Below, one piece after another: positions 77 to 40,508 of a DNA stretch of 40,668 nt. The stretch lies in the sequence record SRR33789315_42; one strand, given 5' to 3'. The position numbers and the translations under genes were made by a program. A model generated the notes under the pieces. It did no database searches. It saw only the letters and a list, made by a program, of their open reading frames with translations, and was not told the DNA's origin. Position 1 is the first letter of the stretch. Each line of letters begins with the position of its first letter.

Positions 77-87
77 TGTAGCCGCTC

Positions 88-156
88 GGGTAGTTTGATA
101 AATAGCGCGGGGTAGTTTGATAAACACTGAACCCAAAACGCGGGGTAGTTTGATAA
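88..156 (+). repeat. Three transposase-binding sites at the tail-side end (Mu R1-R3 equivalent)
   Basis: GGGTAGTTTGATAA at 88-101, 110-123 and 143-156, with inverted related copies at the other end. Confidence 0.85.
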
Positions 157-158
157 CA

Positions 159-950
159 TTAGTGGCTGGTGGATTGGGATTGGTGCTGCTTGTCTGTGGC
201 TGGTTTTAACGCTTCATTAGCCGCTGATTTGAGTAGTAAATCAATGGGTTTGCTAAAGTCTTGTTGGGTCTCGTTTGCTCTGTGTGTTAACTCTTGTGCC
301 GCGGCTAAGTAGTCATTGGCCAACTGATTATTGTTTGACTGTTGAATCATGCTTTTTATAGTATCAATACGCTGAACGATGCTATTTGATTTAGTGTAAT
401 TCTTAATATCAATTACGTTTAACAACTGTTTAAACACACCATTAAAACGCTTTAAACGGCTCGGGAATGGCACTAAAACACTGAATAGTATTATTCCATT
501 ATTTATATTGCTCACTACATTGCGAGCTGTCCATAGTGACCATGTTGACTCTTTATTAAAATTTGGTGTACTGCCACCATTTAGTGCAATTATGTTGCGA
601 TCGACATGCAGTACTAGATTTAAAATTACATCAATTGTTATACACAACATAATGATTTTAATTGCTGAGTAGAATGGCCAGTGATTAGCACGAGTTGACC
701 AATATAAAAACCCTACAATCAACGCATTAACAAAGGCCCAATAAAGGTAATAAATAGGCACAAGCGGGGATACATTAACAACGATTTGAGCGTACATGAT
801 CGCAGGTAGCGCAAAACCTACAACTAAAATCAAGTTTGTGTAATAAATGGGTTTGTTGTCTTTGCGCTGGACTGCATTAAAAATGAACGCTACTCCTAAA
901 AGTAGCGTCCATATATTATTGATCACAAACGCAGTGGCTAGAGATAGCAT
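159..950 (-). CDS. Uncharacterised polytopic membrane protein (~5 TM helices plus ~100-aa helical C-terminal tail)
   Basis: 263-aa ORF with hydrophobic segments at about aa 5-27, 35-57, 62-84, 92-115 and 143-162. Starts 4 nt after the stop of the upstream peptide gene. Confidence 0.8.
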   Translation of the reverse strand: MLSLATAFVINNIWTLLLGVAFIFNAVQRKDNKPIYYTNLILVVGFALPAIMYAQIVVNVSPLVPIYYLYWAFVNALIVGFLYWSTRANHWPFYSAIKIIMLCITIDVILNLVLHVDRNIIALNGGSTPNFNKESTWSLWTARNVVSNINNGIILFSVLVPFPSRLKRFNGVFKQLLNVIDIKNYTKSNSIVQRIDTIKSMIQQSNNNQLANDYLAAAQELTHRANETQQDFSKPIDLLLKSAANEALKPATDKQHQSQSTSH

Positions 951-954
951 GACG

Positions 955-1149
955 TTATGCTGGGTCGCCGCCAGAGCCTGAACCTGGCTTTGCTGCGCTA
1001 GATAATGCGATAGCTTCAGCTGACAAGGTTACACTATCAGTTGTGCTTGGGGGCTGATTTGCTGGGTCGCCACCGCTGCCACTGCCTGCCGGTGTAGGCA
1101 CAGGTTTAGTGGGTGGTACTGCACTTGGCTTTACATTATTAACTTCCAT
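955..1149 (-). CDS. Small Pro/Gly/Ser-rich peptide with two GSGSGGDPA repeats
   Basis: ORF 955..1161. The likelier start is ATG 1149, preceded by GGAG, giving 64 aa. The repeat is conserved at protein level with different codons. Confidence 0.8.
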   Translation of the reverse strand: MEVNNVKPSAVPPTKPVPTPAGSGSGGDPANQPPSTTDSVTLSAEAIALSSAAKPGSGSGGDPA

Positions 1150-1369
1150 TTTTATCTCCAATAATCCTCACTACCAAACTAGATTAGACTACACTTTTTT
1201 GGAAATTTAAATACCCGCGGTTAATTTATGCTCAAATCTGCTATTTTACAATGAGGGTATAAGGTGCTCGTATTCATGCACTATAAATTCGTAGATGCAG
1301 TTGTTAATATTTAAGACACTATAAATCCCGCTGATTTATTTTTTACTCAAAATACTAGGTATTAAAAAA

Positions 1370-2134
1370 ATGAAAACGTGCATATATTGCAATGTAGTTA
1401 TTGATAAAACCAATAGGAGTAACGAGCATGTTTTACCAAAGTGGTTATTTAAGCACCTGGATGCTCGCAAAGTAGAATTGGGGTTTCTTGAGGTTAGCAG
1501 CAAACAATTAACAGCTAGGCGATCGCGCCCATCACCGAATAGCTTGCGTTATAAAATATGTAATAAGTGCAACAATGAATGGCTTAGTCAAATCGATAAG
1601 TCTTGCATTGGCTTAGTTAAATTTTTATGTGATGGTGAAATAAATTCCGTTGAGGGGCGTTATGGTGAGGACGATTTTATTAGGCTTGCGACTTTTCTAT
1701 ATAAAATATTTCTCAACTTTTTTGCAACATCTTCGTTCGATTTAAAATCTAAGAAACATCTATATGAAAACTTTAAGGAAACTAAAACGCACCCTAAAGA
1801 TGTGGTTTTGTTGAATTCGCCTGGAATCTCTAATACACCCCTAGATATTGCGCATAGTGATATGTGGGAAACTGACTTGGTTAGTTATAACCATGCGACC
1901 GTTATCAAAGAACATGATAGTTTTAAGTTCTTTATACAGATGGGTGACTCAGCTTTTATATTAGCTAAAACACCATTAAAAGGTAAAAAAATCATTGTTG
2001 ATAATTCTTATTTTGTGCCAATAGTTGGGATTGAGCATTGCCGCCATGAATCCATCCCATTAAACAAACCAAGACCACCTATAAAGGATACTATTATTAA
2101 TCGATTTTTACATTCGATTCATTGTGATGTTTGA
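1370..2134 (+). CDS. HNH-type Zn-binding nuclease-domain protein (AT-rich moron)
   Basis: CIYC...SNEHVLPKW...ICNKCNN = CxxC/EH/CxxCN pattern of HNH endonucleases. Opposite strand to the tail operon. Confidence 0.7.
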   Translation: MKTCIYCNVVIDKTNRSNEHVLPKWLFKHLDARKVELGFLEVSSKQLTARRSRPSPNSLRYKICNKCNNEWLSQIDKSCIGLVKFLCDGEINSVEGRYGEDDFIRLATFLYKIFLNFFATSSFDLKSKKHLYENFKETKTHPKDVVLLNSPGISNTPLDIAHSDMWETDLVSYNHATVIKEHDSFKFFIQMGDSAFILAKTPLKGKKIIVDNSYFVPIVGIEHCRHESIPLNKPRPPIKDTIINRFLHSIHCDV

Positions 2135-2152: not shown

Positions 2153-4621
2153 CTAAATCCCTCTAAGAAAAGCTTCGTATTTTGGCACTACGTAATCCAT
2201 GCCAGCTTCATTTAAGTGATAAGTGTCGCCAAGTGTTATTGCTGCTATCTGTGCGGCATTACTCCAGTCAACACTACCGTTTGTCAAATTGTCGAATACA
2301 GGTATAGAGTGATCTCTGCAACGCTCAATAATTGCCGTGATATACGCTTTAACAGCTTCATTCCGTTTGTATGGCGTGATGAAAAAGACCTTTTTTGTTG
2401 GGTATTTATCAAGTAGGGCTTTACATGCGTCATTTAGCGCCCCTTTGAACGTTTCCTCCCCGTTAGCAAAGCTGTCACTATCTGTCCCAATTGGGATAAC
2501 GGCTGTTTGATCATTCGTGCCAGCAAACAGACCAACAAAATCAGCGTCATCATCCATTGCGTCGATACGATTTAACACTGATAGTCCAGCAGCGTTATCA
2601 TTGGTTAATTGGGTGCCGTTAATTCCATAGTTAACCCACGTCATGTTGTTTCTAGCCGCTATTTTAGCGCCCCACACTTGTGCTGATGTGAGGGTATGTC
2701 CTCGCACCATCGAATCGCCATTTACTATTAATTTTTTACCGTAAAGTGGGTTTTTACTATTAACATAGTCAACCACAGTTGCTAGGGCTGTAGTTTGCTC
2801 TGTGTCAGTGACAAAATCCGTAGTAGCGGAAGCAATTGCAGTATCAACTTCTGTTGATGTCATCAATTCATCTGATAACGCTGCTATTGCCGCTTCAATA
2901 TCACCCGTGGTGATAAAATCACTGATCATCTGTGCTACTTTTTCATAAGTCACAGTGTTGTTTTCGAGCTGTTTTCCACTAATAAAAGACTCGGGAATAT
3001 AGTCATTCTTTATAATACTTCCCGTACCATTATCCCTAAACAGACCTCCCGCGACAGGCGCATTAATTGTAGGTTGGCCGTTTAGCGTTAGCGCAAATAA
3101 ACTATGTTTAAATGCGGTCAATGCAGCTGGGCTTGACAATTCAACACCAACATAGGCGTGCAGATATCTAAAGCTGCTGGCAGTAAAATTAGTTGATAGG
3201 GTATACGTTTGAGTTGGGGCATCATACGTACCCAGGGCAAATGTTGCAGTTTGAGTGCCGGTGATATCAGCGGGCGTTGCAACGTCATTTTGAAAAAACA
3301 GGACGTTTAATGATGCAGCGTTAGTGTCATCACAATACATTTTAAATGATAGCGTAAATGCTTGGCCGCTGGTTACCGTTAGCCCCACTAAATCAAACAC
3401 ATAGTCGGTTTGAACTTTTGTGGTGTTGACTGTATTACCACTTGCGACAACATTATATGTTTCTTTAAGAACATGCAGTTCGTTAATTTGCGCTATGCCT
3501 GCATCGTTAATTAATGCTTTGCTGCGAGCGATAAAATCAACTACAGATTTATTTGTAATACCCGATATACCCGCGCTAAACGCTTCGAACGTGCTAACTG
3601 TACTGCCTAACTCTAACTGAAATGTAGCGCGATAATCACGGGCTAAAACAACCACATTTATCCAAATTTGTGTGCAGTTGTCTGGGGTCGTAAATTGTTT
3701 ACCTGCGGGGCTTGCGTTAGCCAATCCCGCTTGACTGACCGCGCTTAGTTGCACATTGCTCGCATCGTAAAACCCCAGTAAACCAACTTGGGATGGAGTA
3801 TACGCTGCATCTGCATGACTAAAACAATATAATGTGTTGGGGGCGACGGGTATTTTAGCTAATACCCAGCCAGCATTTGCACCCACAACGCCAACATTAT
3901 TTATACCAATGTTGGGGGTATCCATCAAATCAGACGAATAGAGGTTTACACCTGTACCCGTTATTGTTAGTGCATTATAAACAGTTGCACCGCTTAGGGC
4001 ATCTGGATTGCCGACTGCAATCTCACCCACTGCTAAATCTGCATCTTTTGCGTATGCTGTTCCGCTCACCCAATGATAATACCCATTTTTAGATGGGTCG
4101 GGGTCGTTAGTGACTTTATATGATGTAACCTGCTCTGCGATGTTAGCAGGCGTATAGGCATCAAGTAAATCGTAGGTTGTAAATGCAATTAACCCTCCCC
4201 GCTGACCTAAGATAAGGGAGTTTAAAGTGCCTTGCACCGTTCCCCCTCTCGATTCCCCAATTTTAGCTGCACCCGTGCTAAGGGTTAACGAGTCGTAACC
4301 CGCAAAATGCGCTTGCAATTCAGTGCCCGAAGCAACAAGTGCATCTATTTGGCCCGTAGCTTTGGCCACAGCGCCCGCCGCACTCACGGGTATCGTTTGC
4401 ACTGAGCAAGGCGAAGCAGTTACTGTTGCAGCATCCCAATTACTTGTAAGTGTAAGTTGTCGAGCGCCGTTATTAATTGACTCGATTTCACGGGGGCGAG
4501 TACTGCTCTCAATAAAGGCAACATTACCCGCAGCGATACCTGTCATCGACTCAGCGCTGTTTATTTGCAGTATTTTACTGCTCGTTTCGATAGCGACACT
4601 TGCAAAGTTTAAAATCGTCAT
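2153..4621 (-). CDS. Tail fibre/spike with C-terminal SGNH/GDSL hydrolase domain
   Basis: Last gene of the tail operon. SGNH blocks NGDS, GINGT, AGTND and DTYHLN. ATG 4621 preferred over TTG 4627. Confidence 0.8.
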   Translation of the reverse strand: MTILNFASVAIETSSKILQINSAESMTGIAAGNVAFIESSTRPREIESINNGARQLTLTSNWDAATVTASPCSVQTIPVSAAGAVAKATGQIDALVASGTELQAHFAGYDSLTLSTGAAKIGESRGGTVQGTLNSLILGQRGGLIAFTTYDLLDAYTPANIAEQVTSYKVTNDPDPSKNGYYHWVSGTAYAKDADLAVGEIAVGNPDALSGATVYNALTITGTGVNLYSSDLMDTPNIGINNVGVVGANAGWVLAKIPVAPNTLYCFSHADAAYTPSQVGLLGFYDASNVQLSAVSQAGLANASPAGKQFTTPDNCTQIWINVVVLARDYRATFQLELGSTVSTFEAFSAGISGITNKSVVDFIARSKALINDAGIAQINELHVLKETYNVVASGNTVNTTKVQTDYVFDLVGLTVTSGQAFTLSFKMYCDDTNAASLNVLFFQNDVATPADITGTQTATFALGTYDAPTQTYTLSTNFTASSFRYLHAYVGVELSSPAALTAFKHSLFALTLNGQPTINAPVAGGLFRDNGTGSIIKNDYIPESFISGKQLENNTVTYEKVAQMISDFITTGDIEAAIAALSDELMTSTEVDTAIASATTDFVTDTEQTTALATVVDYVNSKNPLYGKKLIVNGDSMVRGHTLTSAQVWGAKIAARNNMTWVNYGINGTQLTNDNAAGLSVLNRIDAMDDDADFVGLFAGTNDQTAVIPIGTDSDSFANGEETFKGALNDACKALLDKYPTKKVFFITPYKRNEAVKAYITAIIERCRDHSIPVFDNLTNGSVDWSNAAQIAAITLGDTYHLNEAGMDYVVPKYEAFLRGI

Positions 4622-4630
4622 AATCAATCT

Positions 4631-14474: not shown

Positions 14475-14899
14475 GCGTTGACTCCTAAGCGCCAAGTGTT
14501 GGTAGTAAATCGATCTATCCACCACAGGCCATTGGGCACAAACGCGACAATGTCACTGGCGGCTAGCAAAATAGGCGAGTGGTGGGTGGGTTTAAATCCA
14601 TAAAGTAAGTCGCGGTTTGCGCTGCGCAGTTCTTCAAGGGCAATAAGGGCTTTTTCACCGGTTGGGTCGTTAATGCTTTCGAGACCCATAACCACCCCAA
14701 AGGTGATCACAACTTCTTGCAATGGCTGGCCAATATCTTGATCGCGACTATTACCGTTGGGCCGTTCGGCCACGGGCACCACAAATGACACATTACCGCC
14801 TTTGTGGATGGGCTGTTTGATGGCCTCGCGCAAATTAATGGCCGTTTGCACCCGTTTAAAAACGGGTTGAATGCGGGTTGAGATATCGGTTAACAGCAT
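14471..14899 (-). CDS. Tail terminator / completion protein (Mu gp37-like)
   Basis: 142 aa after gp36, with LYGFKP and GLWWIDRFTT motifs. Confidence 0.7.
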   Translation of the reverse strand: MLLTDISTRIQPVFKRVQTAINLREAIKQPIHKGGNVSFVVPVAERPNGNSRDQDIGQPLQEVVITFGVVMGLESINDPTGEKALIALEELRSANRDLLYGFKPTHHSPILLAASDIVAFVPNGLWWIDRFTTNTWRLGVNA

Positions 14900-15318
14900 T
14901 AGATAAACCCTTTGCTGTCTTTGCGATTAAATACACTGCCGCCCGATTCCATGACGATTAAACTGTCGGTTTGGGGCTGTGCTTCGTCAACGCTCAAACC
15001 TAGGCGAATATCGCCTTTTGCTACGGCGGTTAAAAACTTGATGGCATCGGTGTAGTTATTTTTAACCACTTCGGTAACGCTGTTGTCGTACAAATTATAA
15101 CGGGCAATATTGGCGCAAATGCGGGTTAAGCCGCTGGGCACTACTGCAAGAGGTAAGGGGTAGCGACTACCCACATAGCTGTCGATTGTGTCGCTGGCAT
15201 CTTTGATTGCAGCATCAACCACATCAGTATCAACTGTGCCGGTGCCGCTTGAGTCGGTGAGCTGGATCAGCTCATTCAAATCAAAACGGCTGACCATATC
15301 GTTGATGCTGCAATACAT
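14899..15318 (-). CDS. Head-tail adaptor, Mu gp36-like (DUF1320)
   Basis: MYCS..D...RF...ELIQLTD, IDSYVGSRYPLPL and IARYNL motifs. Confidence 0.9.
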   Translation of the reverse strand: MYCSINDMVSRFDLNELIQLTDSSGTGTVDTDVVDAAIKDASDTIDSYVGSRYPLPLAVVPSGLTRICANIARYNLYDNSVTEVVKNNYTDAIKFLTAVAKGDIRLGLSVDEAQPQTDSLIVMESGGSVFNRKDSKGFI

Positions 15319-15324
15319 AATGAA

Positions 15325-15747
15325 TTACGCCTGGTCTTTGTCGGTTGCTGGGTCGCCACCGCTGCCGCTGCCTGCTGGTTTATTAGCTGGGTCGCCACCG
15401 CTACCGCTGCCCGCGGGCTTTTTGCTTGAGTTGCTAGCTTTTACTGCTGGCTTTTTGGTTTCTTTCGGTGCAGGCGGCTTTTTGTCATCCACCGCTTTTT
15501 CTTGCGACGCGTTGAGGGGGGCAAATAGGGCGGCATCCAAGGGCGCACGGTCGACTGACTCGGGTATGGCGTCGGCTGGCATTTGTTTAACTGACAAACG
15601 TGGCTCGGCGTTGATGGCGTTGATTTGTTCGGGGCTAAAGTGGTCTTCGGCAAAAGCGGTGCCTTGGTCGGTAAAACCGTGGCCAGCGCGGCGAAATGTG
15701 GCACAACTGGCAAAGATTACCACCGCCATAATTGATTTATTCATCAT
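15325..15747 (-). CDS. Mu gp35 / HI1506-like protein with low-complexity C-tail bearing two GSGSGGDPA repeats
   Basis: FRRAG..F...EQ..AI.AEPRLSV motif, located between major capsid and gp36. Confidence 0.8.
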   Translation of the reverse strand: MMNKSIMAVVIFASCATFRRAGHGFTDQGTAFAEDHFSPEQINAINAEPRLSVKQMPADAIPESVDRAPLDAALFAPLNASQEKAVDDKKPPAPKETKKPAVKASNSSKKPAGSGSGGDPANKPAGSGSGGDPATDKDQA

Positions 15748-15835: not shown

Positions 15836-16762
15836 TTATAAAAAGTCGGGCGAAATAACGTTAAACATGCCTTTCAGTTCGTTACTGACGGTAGTGGTGC
15901 CGTCGCTGATATCTGAGCGCGTATTGATTTGCAGCGCTTTTTGATATTCGGTTGCAGGTACAACGAGGGTTAGTTTGTTTTTACCCAAACCCAGTGGGCG
16001 GCCACCGTCGGCTTTAAAGCTGCGCATTAAGTTAATGGCGTCCCAAATAGTTTGGTAATTCATGGTTTTCTTAACGCCTACGGCCATTTGCCAGAAGCCA
16101 AAGCCCACGTTGCAGCGGCAATCTACGCCATAGCGAAAGGTTTTATTGGTGAATACCGATTCGTCGTTGGGGTTGTCCATGGCGACAAACTGCATGCCTT
16201 TGCGCTCTTGAAAAATCAAAGGCTTAAGGCTGCGGCTGGTATCCATTAAATACCAAGGTTGGCCGGTGTAAGCACCATCAACAATGACGTTGGCAAAGCT
16301 GGTATCTGCACCGCTGCCATCGACTGCGGCGTTTACTGGGTGGTCGGTATCAAAGTAGTATTGGCCGTCGTAACACAAAGTCGTGAATCCGGCTTTTAAT
16401 AGCGGGAAGACTAACTCGTCTGGAAATACGCTAGCGGCGTAACCCATTTCATTCATCATTGGCGCGTAAACACCTAGGCCATCATCTTCAATGTCGTTAC
16501 GATCAACTGCGACGGTTGATTCGTAATCTTTATTGGTGATGGCGTAGCTGTGCTCTTTGATGGATTTTAATTGACGATCGCCAATCCATTCACGAAAGCC
16601 GGGCCATTGGCCTAACCAGCCATAGGTATTTGATTTAGTGCTAGATGGGACGACAGTTGCCACTTGAGCAAACATCGGTTCGCCTCTGACTTTGCCGTCT
16701 TCAAAATTCTTTTTAAAGCCAGTGCGTATTGCATTTAATACGGCTGAGGTTACTAATGCCAT
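15836..16762 (-). CDS. Major capsid protein, Mu gpT family
   Basis: NTYGWLGQWPGFREWIGDR, CYDGQYYFDTDHPV and GFGFWQMA motifs. Confidence 0.95.
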   Translation of the reverse strand: MALVTSAVLNAIRTGFKKNFEDGKVRGEPMFAQVATVVPSSTKSNTYGWLGQWPGFREWIGDRQLKSIKEHSYAITNKDYESTVAVDRNDIEDDGLGVYAPMMNEMGYAASVFPDELVFPLLKAGFTTLCYDGQYYFDTDHPVNAAVDGSGADTSFANVIVDGAYTGQPWYLMDTSRSLKPLIFQERKGMQFVAMDNPNDESVFTNKTFRYGVDCRCNVGFGFWQMAVGVKKTMNYQTIWDAINLMRSFKADGGRPLGLGKNKLTLVVPATEYQKALQINTRSDISDGTTTVSNELKGMFNVISPDFL

Positions 16763-36184: not shown

Positions 36185-36895
36185 CTATACCTCAGCCGCT
36201 GGAAAGAAAGGCCGAGCTGCCCATTGTTCACTGGTAATGTTTTGTAAATTGTTGGCTTTGCTGAATTTTTCGATGGTAACTAGGCCAACCGTTAAGCGGC
36301 GAAAGTTGCCTTTAGATCGTGTTAGTAATTCTTGCAATAAACAGGGGGCAATTTTTACATCTTCGACCAGTGAATTGGCCATGATTTGGATGTCGCCAAA
36401 ATCGGCAGGTTGAAATTGTACGTGCTGGCTAATGCGGCTAAGTAGCTGCGGCAAGCGTTTTACTTTTTTGGGTAAGTGCTCGTAACCGATCAAGATGATT
36501 GGCACATTAGCAAGGTCGTAAATATCGCGGATTGTTTCGAGTACTTCGGTTTTTTCGGCTAGGTAGTCGGCTTCGTCAATAAATAGAGGTCTGTCGTTTA
36601 ATGCTAATTCTTTGACGATAAAATTAAGCATGTCAGCGCGACGTTGACGTGTTTCTAGGCCTAGTTCTAGCGCTAAGCGTTCGAGAAATGTGCCAAGGGT
36701 ATCGGCTTTTAAACAGCGCACTAAGACGCCGTCGGCATGGACAAACAACCACGATCCTGCTGTGGTTTTGCCTAACCCAGCTTTGCCGCTGAACATGCCC
36801 ATTGCGGGCGTCCCTTCGCGGGCTGCTTGTACGATGTTTTGATAGGCATCGAATGCGGCAAGTACGTTTTGTGTTTTGGCTATTGCTGTTCTCAT
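36185..36895 (-). CDS. MuB-like AAA+ transposition ATPase
   Basis: GKAGLGKT Walker A, LFIDEADYL Walker B, ATGA overlap with transposase. Confidence 0.9.
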   Translation of the reverse strand: MRTAIAKTQNVLAAFDAYQNIVQAAREGTPAMGMFSGKAGLGKTTAGSWLFVHADGVLVRCLKADTLGTFLERLALELGLETRQRRADMLNFIVKELALNDRPLFIDEADYLAEKTEVLETIRDIYDLANVPIILIGYEHLPKKVKRLPQLLSRISQHVQFQPADFGDIQIMANSLVEDVKIAPCLLQELLTRSKGNFRRLTVGLVTIEKFSKANNLQNITSEQWAARPFFPAAEV

Positions 36896-39084
36896 TTTTG
36901 TTGTTTCCTTTTTTCTGCTTGTTGAATGTCGTCTAGCATGCGAGCCGCAGCAGGATTGGCGCGCCGATAGTTGTGTAACCATGCTTTTTCAATTGCTGGT
37001 AGGTCTGTGGTAATGCCTAACTGTGTTAGATAGCGGGCTTTTTGGGCATCGCCAGCGAACACTGGGGTTGTGTTAATTTCGTTGTCGAATTTTTCTAGTT
37101 CGATCAGTTGTTTGCGGCGTTGTTCGAACGTGTTTTTTTGTTGTTCGGTAAAACCATTATCTGGGGTTGCCAATGCAGCAGCAGCACCTTTGGTGGCCGT
37201 GGTATTAATGTTTTGTGATGGCTTTGGAAAGGCATTTAAACCGCCATTTTGGCCCGTTTTATAATCGAGATAGGTTTGGGCTGCGTTGCTGACATCGTGT
37301 TGTTTGGCGAGCTTTTTAAAGCTTTTGCGTTGCTCGGTAAGTTGGGCGCGCTGGATGCGTTTGGCTTCCATTGCGTGGGCCATTGTGATGTCTTGGCCTG
37401 CAATTTCGGGGTTGACGGCTTCGCATATAAAGTGGCCGTGTAGGGCGTGGAATACGTAAATTTTGCCAACGTCGTTGGGGTTCCAGCGGCAGAATACACG
37501 CTCGCCTATGTAGGCACCGAGTTCGGCATGTATGTAGCTGCCGCCTTCGACACTAATGCCGTTTGATTTGGTTATAGTGCGGTAGCCGTCGCCTGGCACG
37601 GGTGATAAGAGCACGTCAAGTAGGCGCGGTTGTTCAATGCGTTTGATGGTTTGTTGGTGTTGGGTGAATTTTTCGAATGGGCTGCATTTTAGGCCGCTGT
37701 GTTCGACTTGGTGATAATGGTGTTCTACCCATTGATTCATGAATTGTTCGAATTCTTCGGCGGTGAGCTGTACGTCGAGGCACATTTTTTCGGCCCCTTT
37801 TTCTTTGCGTTCCATGAGTTGTTGGGCAAAAGTTTTGCGTTTGTTGATGCGTTCGCGGTCTGTGACGTTGTGGCCTATAAAGCCTTGGATTAATTCGACT
37901 ATGCCGTGGCTAAAGGTGCGAAAGAAACGCTCGATAAAGGGTTTTTCCCAACCGCTGTAGGGATTGGTTATGTCGTTTTCAATGTCGAGTGAATTCCAGA
38001 CCGTGGTGATGTGGTGTGATAAATAATCGCTACCGTTATCGGTGCGGGCGACTTCTGGCAAGCCCCAGTCGAGGATTGCATTACGTATTAGTAGGGCGAT
38101 GGCTTCGGCATTTGATGTGGGTTTTAAAACCAGTTTGACGCGACGGGTGAATACGTCGATTACACCGACTATGCTGTAGCGTCCGTCGGTGAGCATGACG
38201 TCGGCAGGGGTACTGTCGAACTCCCAAAGCTGGTTGATGCGGGCTATGTCTATCGACATATTGCCAAAGGCTACCATACGTTTGTTTTGCCAGGCTGATG
38301 GATCAAACATGGACATGTAAAGTTCTTGATTATCGGTTTTCCAGCTGCTTAGCCAGGCGCGGCATGTGCTTGCGGCGGGCGTGTCGTATTTACCGTTAAA
38401 TTCGGCTTCGAGCATGTCGGCAATGCGTTCGCCTTTGATATGCGGGTAGGTTTGGATTAGGGCGAGGCAGTATTCTTTTAGCTCGGGCGTTGAGTCGATA
38501 ATTCCGCTGCCTTTGGTTTGCCCATAGTTGCCAACAAGCGCCATAATGCCTTTGGTGTTATAGGCTTTTTCCCAACGGCTTAGGCTGATGTAGCTTATGC
38601 GGTTGTGGTGGGTGAATTGGCTTTGGTCAATGCTGGGGTGGTTGCTGTTGTAGTGATCGCAAAATTCTGTCCAGGCTTTGACTTTTGGCTGGCCTGTGCG
38701 GCGTTGGTGTTTTTTGGCTGCGGTTAGTATGTTGACTTTTTCAACAGCACGGGCTTGGTTGATTCCGCTTATACCTGCAAATGCTTTTAATGAGGCTTGC
38801 TTTTGCTGGGCCGTTATTTGTTGGTTGGTGGCTTGGCTTTTTAGCGCAAATGTGGCGGCATTTATTGCGCGGTGAGCTATGTTTGTGTCTTGTTCTGTTG
38901 GTGTTTGTTTATTGATTGCGGTTTGAACGTCAATTGGCAAATCGGCTATTGCATAATGCCTAATTTGTCCACCTCGGCCTTTTTTCAATTCAAAAGCCCA
39001 TGAATCCTTTTCAGATCTAATTAGTATAATTCGTTTGCTAACACCAAGTGCCTCTGCAATTTGATTAGCTGTATAGGTACTCAT
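36892..39084 (-). CDS. MuA-like DDE transposase
   Basis: N-terminal Mu-type HTH, with WEFDSTPAD, RTDNGSDY and KPFIERFFRT DDE motifs. Confidence 0.95.
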   Translation of the reverse strand: MSTYTANQIAEALGVSKRIILIRSEKDSWAFELKKGRGGQIRHYAIADLPIDVQTAINKQTPTEQDTNIAHRAINAATFALKSQATNQQITAQQKQASLKAFAGISGINQARAVEKVNILTAAKKHQRRTGQPKVKAWTEFCDHYNSNHPSIDQSQFTHHNRISYISLSRWEKAYNTKGIMALVGNYGQTKGSGIIDSTPELKEYCLALIQTYPHIKGERIADMLEAEFNGKYDTPAASTCRAWLSSWKTDNQELYMSMFDPSAWQNKRMVAFGNMSIDIARINQLWEFDSTPADVMLTDGRYSIVGVIDVFTRRVKLVLKPTSNAEAIALLIRNAILDWGLPEVARTDNGSDYLSHHITTVWNSLDIENDITNPYSGWEKPFIERFFRTFSHGIVELIQGFIGHNVTDRERINKRKTFAQQLMERKEKGAEKMCLDVQLTAEEFEQFMNQWVEHHYHQVEHSGLKCSPFEKFTQHQQTIKRIEQPRLLDVLLSPVPGDGYRTITKSNGISVEGGSYIHAELGAYIGERVFCRWNPNDVGKIYVFHALHGHFICEAVNPEIAGQDITMAHAMEAKRIQRAQLTEQRKSFKKLAKQHDVSNAAQTYLDYKTGQNGGLNAFPKPSQNINTTATKGAAAALATPDNGFTEQQKNTFEQRRKQLIELEKFDNEINTTPVFAGDAQKARYLTQLGITTDLPAIEKAWLHNYRRANPAAARMLDDIQQAEKRKQQK

Positions 39085-39519: not shown

Positions 39520-40074
39520 ATGCTTATAAATGACTTTTGCAAACTTATTTTTGATATAAGAGAAAAAAAAGTGACTAGAAGTGAAATTGCTAGGAAGTAT
39601 CCTTGGCATAGAAATACACTTTTATCTTATGAGACAGATCGCCTTCCTGATATTGATTATTTATATGCGTTGTCAGTTGAGACAGGGTTCGATTTTAAAA
39701 TTTTAATTAAATTAAGATTGCAGGCAGGAATACTTGGTAATTTATTTAATTTTGATGAAATTAATGTATTTAATAACGACTTAAATAAGTCAGAATTAAT
39801 TGAACATTTAGTGAATGATAACTGTATGGCAAAAACCATTCTTCCTGGCGCAGTTATACATATAGATACAAGCATTAAAGAGCTATCAGAAGGTTCAATT
39901 TACCTATTTTTAGTTGGTTCTGTTCTAAAACCATGCAGGGTTCAATTTGGTATCGATAATAGTGTTATTTTGAACTTTGATAACAATGAATTTTCACCAA
40001 TAAATCTTACTGAAATTCAATTTAAGGATATTGAAGTAAAGGGAAAAGTCGTATCTGTTTTAAACCCTCTATAA
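39520..40074 (+). CDS. Phage repressor: XRE-type HTH plus degenerate S24 peptidase-like domain
   Basis: SEIARKYPWHRNTLLSYETDRLPD HTH, V.DNCMAKTILPG...KGKVV C-domain, divergent from ner. Confidence 0.85.
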   Translation: MLINDFCKLIFDIREKKVTRSEIARKYPWHRNTLLSYETDRLPDIDYLYALSVETGFDFKILIKLRLQAGILGNLFNFDEINVFNNDLNKSELIEHLVNDNCMAKTILPGAVIHIDTSIKELSEGSIYLFLVGSVLKPCRVQFGIDNSVILNFDNNEFSPINLTEIQFKDIEVKGKVVSVLNPL

Positions 40075-40082
40075 ATTGATGA

Positions 40083-40235
40083 AAGTGTGATCTTGCCTGC
40101 TTACCCTAGGATCACACTTTAATTCGTAACTATTTCTTAATTTTCTTTCTGTATATAGCTTTGACTAAAGTGTGATCTCATTTTTAAGTGTGATCTCAAT
40201 GATCACACTTCCAACGAATAAGTGTGATCACTCTT
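40083..40235. repeat. Cluster of six AAGTGTGATC decamers in mixed orientation
   Basis: Forward copies start at 40083, 40168, 40186 and 40220. Reverse copies (GATCACACTT) start at 40110 and 40201. Confidence 0.9.
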
Positions 40236-40377: not shown

Positions 40378-40508
40378 TTTATCAAACTAGGCTGTTTTTA
40401 GGATCTTTATTTATCGCTTAATTAATTGCTCTATAGGCCTTATTTTTAAAGACCTATCCCATATTTTCCCGCCAAATTTTATTTATTCCCATATTAATCA
40501 ATCTATCC
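40378..40508 (-). repeat. Transposase-binding sites at the repressor-side end (Mu L sites equivalent)
   Basis: Reverse complements: TAGTTTGATAAA (40378-40389) and GGATAGATTGATTAA (40494-40508). The latter starts at base 12 from the end, like the site at 88. Confidence 0.75.

Follow-up and report, generated by a model that had tools for sequence, protein, structure and literature searches.

What is the role of a peptide gene and a membrane protein gene at the very end of a Mu-like prophage, when a nine-residue motif of the peptide recurs on a capsid-associated protein of the same phage? The question was raised by sequence record SRR33789315_42, one strand of 40,668 nucleotides (nt), here called the window, with positions counted from its first letter. 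The peptide gene (955-1149, minus strand) encodes 64 amino acids (aa) from an ATG that has GGAG 7 nt upstream. The ATG of the membrane protein gene (159-950, minus strand, 263 aa) lies 4 nt past the TAA of the peptide gene. GSGSGGDPA is present twice in the peptide, at residues 22-30 (copy pep1, 1060-1086, minus strand, inside PAGSGSGGDPAN) and at residues 56-64 (copy pep2, 958-984, minus strand), where it forms the C-terminus, a position typical of the peptide family. Two further copies, g35a (15385-15411) and g35b (15346-15372), are located on the minus strand in the tail of a gp35-like protein (15325-15747, minus strand, 140 aa), which ends with KKPAGSGSGGDPANKPAGSGSGGDPATDKDQA. The original prediction had described a peptide of about 64 aa with both motif copies 4 nt upstream of a five-transmembrane protein of unrecognised family, and the motif twice in the gp35-like tail and nowhere else. 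All of this was borne out: an AlphaFold2 model showed five helices, a six-frame scan of the window detected GSGSGG solely at the four places, and Pfam, NCBIfam, PHROGs and PADLOC contained no matching family for the membrane protein, nor for the peptide. We rate the finding as a new family of peptide/membrane pairs, with the twist that an identical and apparently selected motif is carried by a capsid decoration protein. The explanation put forward tentatively, which we consider plausible without being probable, is a cognate pair, in which the membrane protein would serve as immunity or receptor protein for the peptide and gp35 would be a further carrier of the motif.

The peptide and the membrane protein form a genuine and conserved two-gene family, which is unnamed, uncharacterised and lineage-restricted. 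Related loci were gathered from several sources, in part with an alignment of seven sequences of the membrane family; locus scans with single-protein or three-sequence patterns returned no loci. The loci comprised the reference phage Pseudoalteromonas phage HS6, nine places in three genomes (Alteromonas sp. a30, a gammaproteobacterial metagenome-assembled genome (MAG) and a Paraneptunicella MAG), four metagenome contigs, one IMG/VR provirus and, in a 401-genome sample of the same GTDB family, 26 genomes. Pairing was counted for single or first-of-array membrane genes, after removal of genes inside arrays and of those whose locus offered less than 350 nt upstream. By a strict rule, i.e. a small open reading frame (ORF) upstream on the same strand with a glycine run and a proline tail, 29 of 40 membrane genes were paired, compared with none of 286 control ORFs of at least 140 aa from the same loci. 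A loose rule, i.e. a small upstream ORF with a terminal glycine run and proline, was satisfied for 34 of 39 membrane genes. The original prediction had proposed to ask whether the membrane gene commonly occurs without a peptide, and it rarely did. The distance between the two genes ranged from -20 to 155 nt across the family. A limited search of the literature on FluMu and Mu-like phages, microcin immunity and morons found no description of the pair or the motif.

The cassettes were located in phage accessory slots, integrase islands and chromosomal arrays of Alteromonadaceae. Five of them close the right end of a Mu-like or HS6-like phage (the window, HS6, G209, G248 and G137), with the tail genes immediately before them. 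In a lambdoid IMG/VR provirus (L016), the pair adjoined a cI-like repressor, and in three islands (L052, L060 and L010) it adjoined P4-like integrases. Chromosomal pairs followed an rpoS-like gene, named by eye, in two genomes, or were found as arrays between the arginine operon and a coaD-like gene. In the window, the cassette is the final coding unit before the end repeats at 84-156. It had been proposed that it occupies the terminal slot held by gin/com/mom in Mu. The position stood, with the five Mu-like or HS6-like cases, and homology did not: neither the peptide nor the membrane protein matched any Pfam or PHROG family at E ≤ 0.05, and the slot is the only thing that the cassette has in common with the right end of Mu.

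Examples of the glycine-run units of the peptides were GGGGHPGVDP, GGNSGGDPSIPDP, GFGGG(D/H)P, GIGTGDPPGPD, GPGVSGDP and GGGxxxx(D/P)P, similar inside one peptide and different from locus to locus. By eye, similar glycine units accompanied similar loop-4 sequences of the membrane protein, which co-inheritance could explain. The membrane protein occurred in a long form of 250-305 aa, with a C-terminal domain, and a short form of about 165-190 aa, which consists of the helical bundle alone and often forms tandem arrays of two to five paralogues behind one peptide gene. A signal-like hydrophobic segment at the N-terminus was present in 17 of 18 peptides paired with the long form and in 3 of 16 paired with the short form. 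The window peptide was the sole exception among the former, with a maximal Kyte-Doolittle mean of 1.27 over 12 residues. It resembled instead the signal-less peptides of the chromosomal arrays, MQVN...LQSDTVTLSSDAVAAS...GGG...P, in which the N-terminal part is conserved and the short stretch behind the glycine run is hypervariable. With a hidden Markov model of five peptides upstream of chromosomal arrays, the window peptide was the best of 685 window segments (E = 0.0022) and the match ran through TDSVTLSAEAIALS. By this comparison the window peptide is related to the array peptides via a SDTVTLSSEALA-like block. It has only DPA after its last glycine run. A word search of 5.8 billion clusters returned only the window's own peptide, and the peptide had no Pfam match even at E ≤ 10. 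An alternative in-frame TTG start at 1161, with an in-frame TGA just above it, would give a peptide of 68 aa. A promoter-like site is located upstream of the peptide gene (1280-1307, minus strand; TTAACA, 16 nt, TATAGT; 10/12), a consensus match only, as five such sites were found in 1-1500 and 4.3 were expected from shuffles. A search of sequencing runs for 100-2200 listed none, and none of RNA. Among the relatives, some peptides had double-glycine-like leaders with ...ELxxVSGG ends, and the peptide of L029 scored 17 bits against the type-A lantibiotic leader model among the general Pfam models, below the cut-off of 21.7.

The AlphaFold2 model of the membrane protein, built on an alignment of 20 sequences, had a predicted local distance difference test (pLDDT) value of 82 and a predicted template modelling score of 0.76. 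The five long helices were predicted at residues 4-28, 33-60, 63-88, 95-121 and 138-159 and were followed by a C-terminal domain of four helices. A conserved patch, HVDRN..ALNG...PN......W.LW, comprised residues 115-140 at the end of helix 4, in the next loop and at the start of helix 5. Its conserved residues were H115, D117, R118, N119, N124, P129, N130, W137, L139 and W140, with D117, N124, N130, W137, L139 and W140 invariant or near-invariant across the family. Basic residues follow helices 1 and 5. Because the positive-inside rule, the only guide to topology used, would place the C-terminal domain and loops 1 and 3 in the cytoplasm (N-out/C-in), the conserved patch is expected on the outer face.

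Homologues of the membrane protein were rare. Two close homologues with 54-57% identity were found in the word search of the 5.8 billion clusters, and a full HMMER pass over 1.84 billion proteins gave 21 representatives, of which 13 had E ≤ 1e-10. Among solved structures, Foldseek had no PDB match at E ≤ 0.001, a wide search with VIA-align returned just generic helical bundles (Z ≤ 8.7), and a PDB sequence profile returned only designed helical proteins (E ≥ 0.014). Recognition by the ESM Atlas was low and the nearest clusters were unnamed; one automatic label, 'MreD' (0.91), was not used. Co-folding of the membrane protein with the window peptide reached a score of 0.32 against a mark of 0.34, with controls at 0.00-0.01, and was used neither for nor against binding.

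An H-x-D pair together with N and W residues that are near-invariant in very diverged members would also suit a membrane enzyme, a peptidase or transferase acting at the glycine-run/D-P site of the peptide and of gp35, and peptides with repeated units resemble multi-core precursors. However, the fold and family searches above returned no peptidase or transferase, and paralogue arrays would be unusual for a processing enzyme. We regard an enzyme as highly improbable, and the protease or transpeptidase model of the original prediction found no support from fold or family.

The second bearer of the motif is encoded by the next ORF after the gene of the gpT-type major capsid protein (15836-16762; PF10124, E = 2.5e-115). 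The gp35-like protein matched Pfam FluMu_N (PF17891) at residues 10-56 with 28.2 bits, above the cut-off of 25.8. Positions 11-55 of a profile of gp35 homologues (A4) aligned to residues 59-103 of chain B of PDB 8rkc (E = 0.0021, 21.7 bits). Foldseek on a low-confidence gp35 model placed HI1506 (2OUT) first, at a non-significant E = 0.88. From these matches, gp35 is assigned to the FluMu_N or JBD30 gp39-type family of minor capsid (decoration) proteins. The accessible sections of the structural report on the Mu-like siphophage JBD30 identify chain B of 8rkc as gp39, a minor capsid protein whose trimers occupy the threefold and quasi-threefold axes on the surface of a T=7 capsid, with a Soc-like beta-tadpole fold and residues 1-52 not resolved (PMC11445458). 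The N-domain of gp35 aligns to the capsid-bound domain of gp39. The flexible extension is N-terminal in gp39 and would be C-terminal in gp35. As far as these sections of the report go, no GSGSGGDPA-like motif is described for gp39 (PMC11445458). By homology, gp35 would also be located on the capsid. The gp35 tail, from about residue 79 to 140, was predicted to be disordered, with AlphaFold2 pLDDT mostly below 50. The motif would thus be displayed on a flexible extension of a capsid-surface protein.

Ten gp35 homologues were compared. Six retained GSGSGGD at the same place in the tail, five as GSGSGGDP and one as GSGSGGDT, and four had no motif. The motif-bearing homologues carried one copy each, versus two in the window gp35, and the surrounding tails were variable. 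A tblastn search of gp35 against 50,697 phage records gave no match at E ≤ 1e-3. Among the 401 genomes of the family sample, gp35-like genes were present in eight, and they were also detected in 3 of 140 genomes of one genus and 1 of 4 of another. None of the eight translated genes from the 401-genome sample contained the motif; the matches in the 140-genome genus were weak and were left out.

At the nucleotide level, the four-fold occurrence of the motif in the window is far beyond chance. Its 11-nt core, GGCGACCCAGC, was present in four copies versus a shuffle mean of 0.55, and none of 100 shuffles reached four. Between pep2 and each of the other three copies, 8-10 of the 27 nt differed, two serine codons having switched between AGY and TCN, and in 200,000 random trials with eight substitutions the peptide was never kept. 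Since the pep2 differences are all synonymous, the identity between pep2 and the gp35 tail points to selection on the protein sequence. The two gp35 copies differed from each other at 2 of 27 nt. Copy pep1 and gp35 copy b differed at 1 of 27 nt and were embedded in a 31-nt stretch with 30 identical positions, whose flanks showed no similarity; by this pattern one motif copy is evidently a recent DNA copy. Nearly all synonymous differences were in the first 15 nt of the motif. The last 12 nt (GGCGACCCAGCA; 958-969, 1060-1071, 15346-15357 and 15385-15396) were identical in three copies and matched at 11 of 12 positions in the fourth, which may reflect codon preference or a constraint on the nucleic acid.

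Sharing between peptide and gp35 was not found outside the window. The original prediction had expected the two motifs to co-vary, and this was absent in all three other cassette prophages checked (HS6, G209 and G248). In HS6, no 5-mer of the peptide was present in gp18, which is gp35-like, or in any intact ORF. In G209 and G248, gp35 and the cassette share a strand, with gp35 about 12.6 kb upstream, an arrangement also seen in the window. In these two prophages gp35 was the only protein compared, and it lacked the GPGSGGTGG unit of the peptide and had a different, folded-looking C-terminal part. Both the motif and the cassette were missing from L017, a 40-kb IMG/VR relative. When the nonapeptide was sought in IMG/VR with a degenerate DNA pattern, 31 loci matched, none with gp35 or a membrane gene of the family; seven of them encoded GSGSGGDPA, in unrelated proteins. 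The gp35 link has so far been seen in a single phage. For the gp35 motif, selection and conservation in part of the clade (6/10) were upheld, and the link to a peptide elsewhere was not (0/3).

These data bear on a rival explanation of the gp35 link, and of this link only. The sharing could be a by-product of short DNA exchange between low-complexity, glycine-rich coding stretches that have no common partner, with the pair keeping a role of its own and the gp35 motif serving as a linker or in capsid biology. The near-identity of pep1 and gp35 copy b between dissimilar flanks would be expected from such an exchange, as would the single copy in gp35 relatives, the missing sharing in the other three prophages and the presence of the nonapeptide in seven unrelated IMG/VR proteins. 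However, pep2 occupies the family-typical C-terminal site and kept all nine residues despite its 8-10 synonymous differences and two switches of serine codon family. The motif is also a conserved island in otherwise variable gp35 tails, and two unrelated functions would each need the same 9-mer. We consider exchange without a common partner unlikely. The motif common to peptide and gp35 hints at a shared binding partner.

In the cognate-pair explanation favoured here, the functional element of the peptide would be the glycine run followed by (D/H/P)-P near the C-terminus. The five-helix inner-membrane protein would recognise this motif at the patch H-x-D-R-N ... N ... P-N ... W-W-L-W, located where helices 4 and 5 reach the outer face. 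The two would act like a secreted peptide and its membrane immunity or receptor protein, as in bacteriocin/immunity or SdpC/SdpI pairs. The outer patch would read the invariant glycine-run/proline element, and the variable parts would give specificity. The pair is an accessory (moron) unit of the prophage right end, probably with its own promoter. As a second ligand bearer, gp35 would allow the late protein or virions to engage the partner of the peptide. Support comes from the conserved pairing, the arrays behind one peptide, the accessory slots, the clustering of the invariant residues and the motif link.

Several points weigh against this proposal. The window peptide has no hydrophobic N-terminal segment, versus 17 of 18 long-type partners with one. 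If the predicted N-out/C-in orientation is right, the membrane would separate the window peptide from the patch, barring another route of release for the peptide. A crude regular-expression scan for ABC-type exporters in 12 neighbourhoods of 20 kb around relatives found no ORF with both Walker A and LSGGQ, although exporters may be encoded elsewhere. The window peptide is a poor candidate for a bacteriocin or pheromone because the core after its glycine run is DPA only. Invariance of H, D, N and W in very diverged paralogues could equally mark a catalytic or ion-conducting site. Part of the motif sharing is due to the recent DNA copy, given the 30 of 31 nt shared by pep1 and gp35 copy b, and the sharing was absent from the other three cassette-bearing prophages. 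Binding is something we infer, as are the topology, the reader of the motif and the physiological outcome.

The genomic positions and the gene order also fit another function. A membrane effector for superinfection exclusion or abortive infection could be controlled by the peptide: the free five-helix protein would be harmful or blocking, the labile peptide would restrain it, and the gp35 tail would supply the motif in lytic growth so that only kin escape. Antitoxin-toxin operons have a similar order, with a small disordered protein encoded first, and the 4-nt gap, like the -1 overlap between the two genes in HS6, is in line with this. The slots after tail fibres, beside cI and beside satellite integrases hold prophage exclusion and defence genes, and the cassettes were found in all three. 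The window peptide, gp35 and the C-terminal domain of the membrane protein are all expected to be cytoplasmic. A possible defence-like HNH gene adjoins the cassette (1370-2134, plus strand, divergent from the cassette), encoding 254 aa with a cysteine-rich N-terminus. It showed weak matches to HNH_5 (22.5 bits, cut-off 27.5) and to PADLOC PtuB (E = 0.0023), and may be a second accessory or defence gene of the terminal region. However, neither protein of the pair was found in PADLOC at E ≤ 0.1. Up to five paralogues behind one peptide fit a 1:1 toxin-antitoxin system poorly, and the signal-like segment in 17 of 18 long-type pairs would put the peptide outside the cytoplasm. The gp35 proteins of HS6, G209 and G248 moreover lack a second motif copy. 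An effector of this kind, which is the model of the original prediction with self-immunity supplied by gp35, is judged possible but rather unlikely. In PADLOC, the membrane protein of one relative matched PDC-S05 only at E = 0.0035 over 47 residues.

Exclusion morons of other prophages include RexAB of lambda and gp15 of HK97. The cassette likewise has a membrane gene at an accessory position, behind the tail genes or next to the repressor, and is likely to be expressed from the prophage. It has no homology to either system, and those systems are not known to have a glycine-rich partner peptide or a capsid copy of a motif.

The hypervariable tails of the array peptides behind a conserved N-terminal part raise the alternative of communication between cells or phages, in which the peptide would be a signal and the membrane protein its receptor, with the cytoplasmic helical domain passing the signal to a small regulator. 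A candidate for the latter is a conserved soluble protein of about 90 aa, RRLRYLIQT..NG...F..RG..N.EF...KTKIG, which is encoded convergently with the membrane gene in six loci (L006-L011) and could be a regulator of the pair. Related small proteins were present near other loci (L003, 9082-9321; L012, 59-301), one of them with 26.4 bits on DUF6471, just below the cut-off of 26.8. However, short-type members of about 175 aa have no cytoplasmic domain, and a search of the window for the small protein gave nothing better than E = 0.37. In the window peptide, an export signal is missing and the glycine run is followed by DPA alone, and scans of family libraries found no known receptor or kinase domain. 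Signalling in this form appears improbable. The arbitrium-like model of the original prediction found no support. In arbitrium, AimP is secreted and processed, and AimR is a cytosolic receptor. Both systems have a small phage peptide gene beside a candidate sensor, but here the window peptide has no signal-like segment, and the partner is not a cytosolic receptor but a five-helix membrane protein without a Pfam match.

Closer comparisons for the cognate-pair explanation are class II bacteriocins or microcins with their immunity proteins. As in those systems, the gene of a small glycine-rich peptide is followed immediately, on the same strand, by that of a polytopic membrane protein, in the window after the 4-nt gap. 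The cassette family also has orphan arrays of membrane paralogues and leader-like ends in some relatives. However, the pair had no profile match to known bacteriocin or immunity families, and the window peptide has no recognised leader, no hydrophobic part and only three residues past its last glycine run. In Bacillus subtilis, SdpC, SdpI and SdpR are a toxin peptide, a membrane immunity-receptor and a small repressor, respectively. In many relatives of the window pair, similarly, a polytopic membrane protein accompanies an exported peptide that contains a cysteine pair, and in some loci a small soluble protein adjoins them. No homology to this system was found; the membrane protein has no Pfam match. 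The organisms here are Gram-negative, and the window lacks both the small protein and an export signal. Because no profile or fold match was found, the pair is taken to be a member of neither the bacteriocin/immunity nor the SdpC/SdpI/SdpR systems.

A more speculative extension, to which we assign a low probability, is that the phage uses the motif as a kin tag. Hundreds of copies on the tails of decoration proteins, together with the peptide expressed from the prophage, would be read by the five-helix protein. Lysogens would thereby tell their own phage or its lysate from foreign ones and answer by excluding the phage, aborting the infection or shifting the time of lysis. The Alteromonadaceae arrays would represent this peptide-reading membrane family on the side of the host. 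A functional pairing would establish a new family of peptide/membrane modules, found in marine Mu-like phages and a lambdoid provirus as well as in integrase islands and chromosomal arrays. If the motif link is true, a phage structural protein and a product of lysogenic conversion would have a short linear motif in common, which would be rare. The shared motif would then offer a testable way into the question of how the accessory genes of a prophage recognise the phage they belong to.

The analysis also corrects an annotation. The membrane gene is missing from the HS6 reference record, in which only short ORFs are annotated across the stretch. In HS6 (L001/L002, about 138-1212), a 190-aa ORF overlaps a 124-aa ORF that holds the C-terminal helical part, and the same split, with 183 and 135 aa, was present in L016 (6606-7450). 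The split may be genuine, with two separate genes, or stem from a frameshift or an error in sequencing. In Alteromonas sp. a30 (L008, 5736-6633), a second pair was located 0.5 kb downstream of the first. It comprised a signal-bearing protein of 136 aa, with NGGGLKPDP about five times, and a short-form membrane gene of 168 aa with a 20-nt overlap. Two short-form pairs (L052 and L060, in genomes G029 and G034) were placed between a P4-like integrase and a block of XRE-type repressor and primase, a layout resembling phage satellites. A conserved protein of 104 aa with a single helix followed the pair in L053, L058 and L060.

The window as a whole is a Mu-like prophage. Three direct 18-nt repeats (84-156, plus strand) mark the right end and are probably transposase-binding sites; an inverted copy with two mismatches was detected at 40379-40392. 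A gp36-like gene is located at 14899-15318. The putative transposase, an ORF of 730 aa at 36892-39084, was assigned by eye from its size and place, and a repressor-side ORF is present at 39520-40074. A tail-fibre-like protein of 824 aa (2153-4627, minus strand) matched a PHROG tail fibre (E = 2.9e-37) and carried a C-terminal GDSL/SGNH esterase domain (PF13472, 49 bits), which suggests a deacetylating receptor-binding protein. By eye, bases 1 to about 27 resemble the 3' end of a transfer RNA (tRNA) with terminal CCA, followed by a hairpin with arms at 30-47 and 55-72. ARAGORN found no tRNA in the window, presumably because the edge of the window truncates the gene. Words resembling AAGTGTGATC recur at 40086-40230, close to the left end, and look like operator sites.

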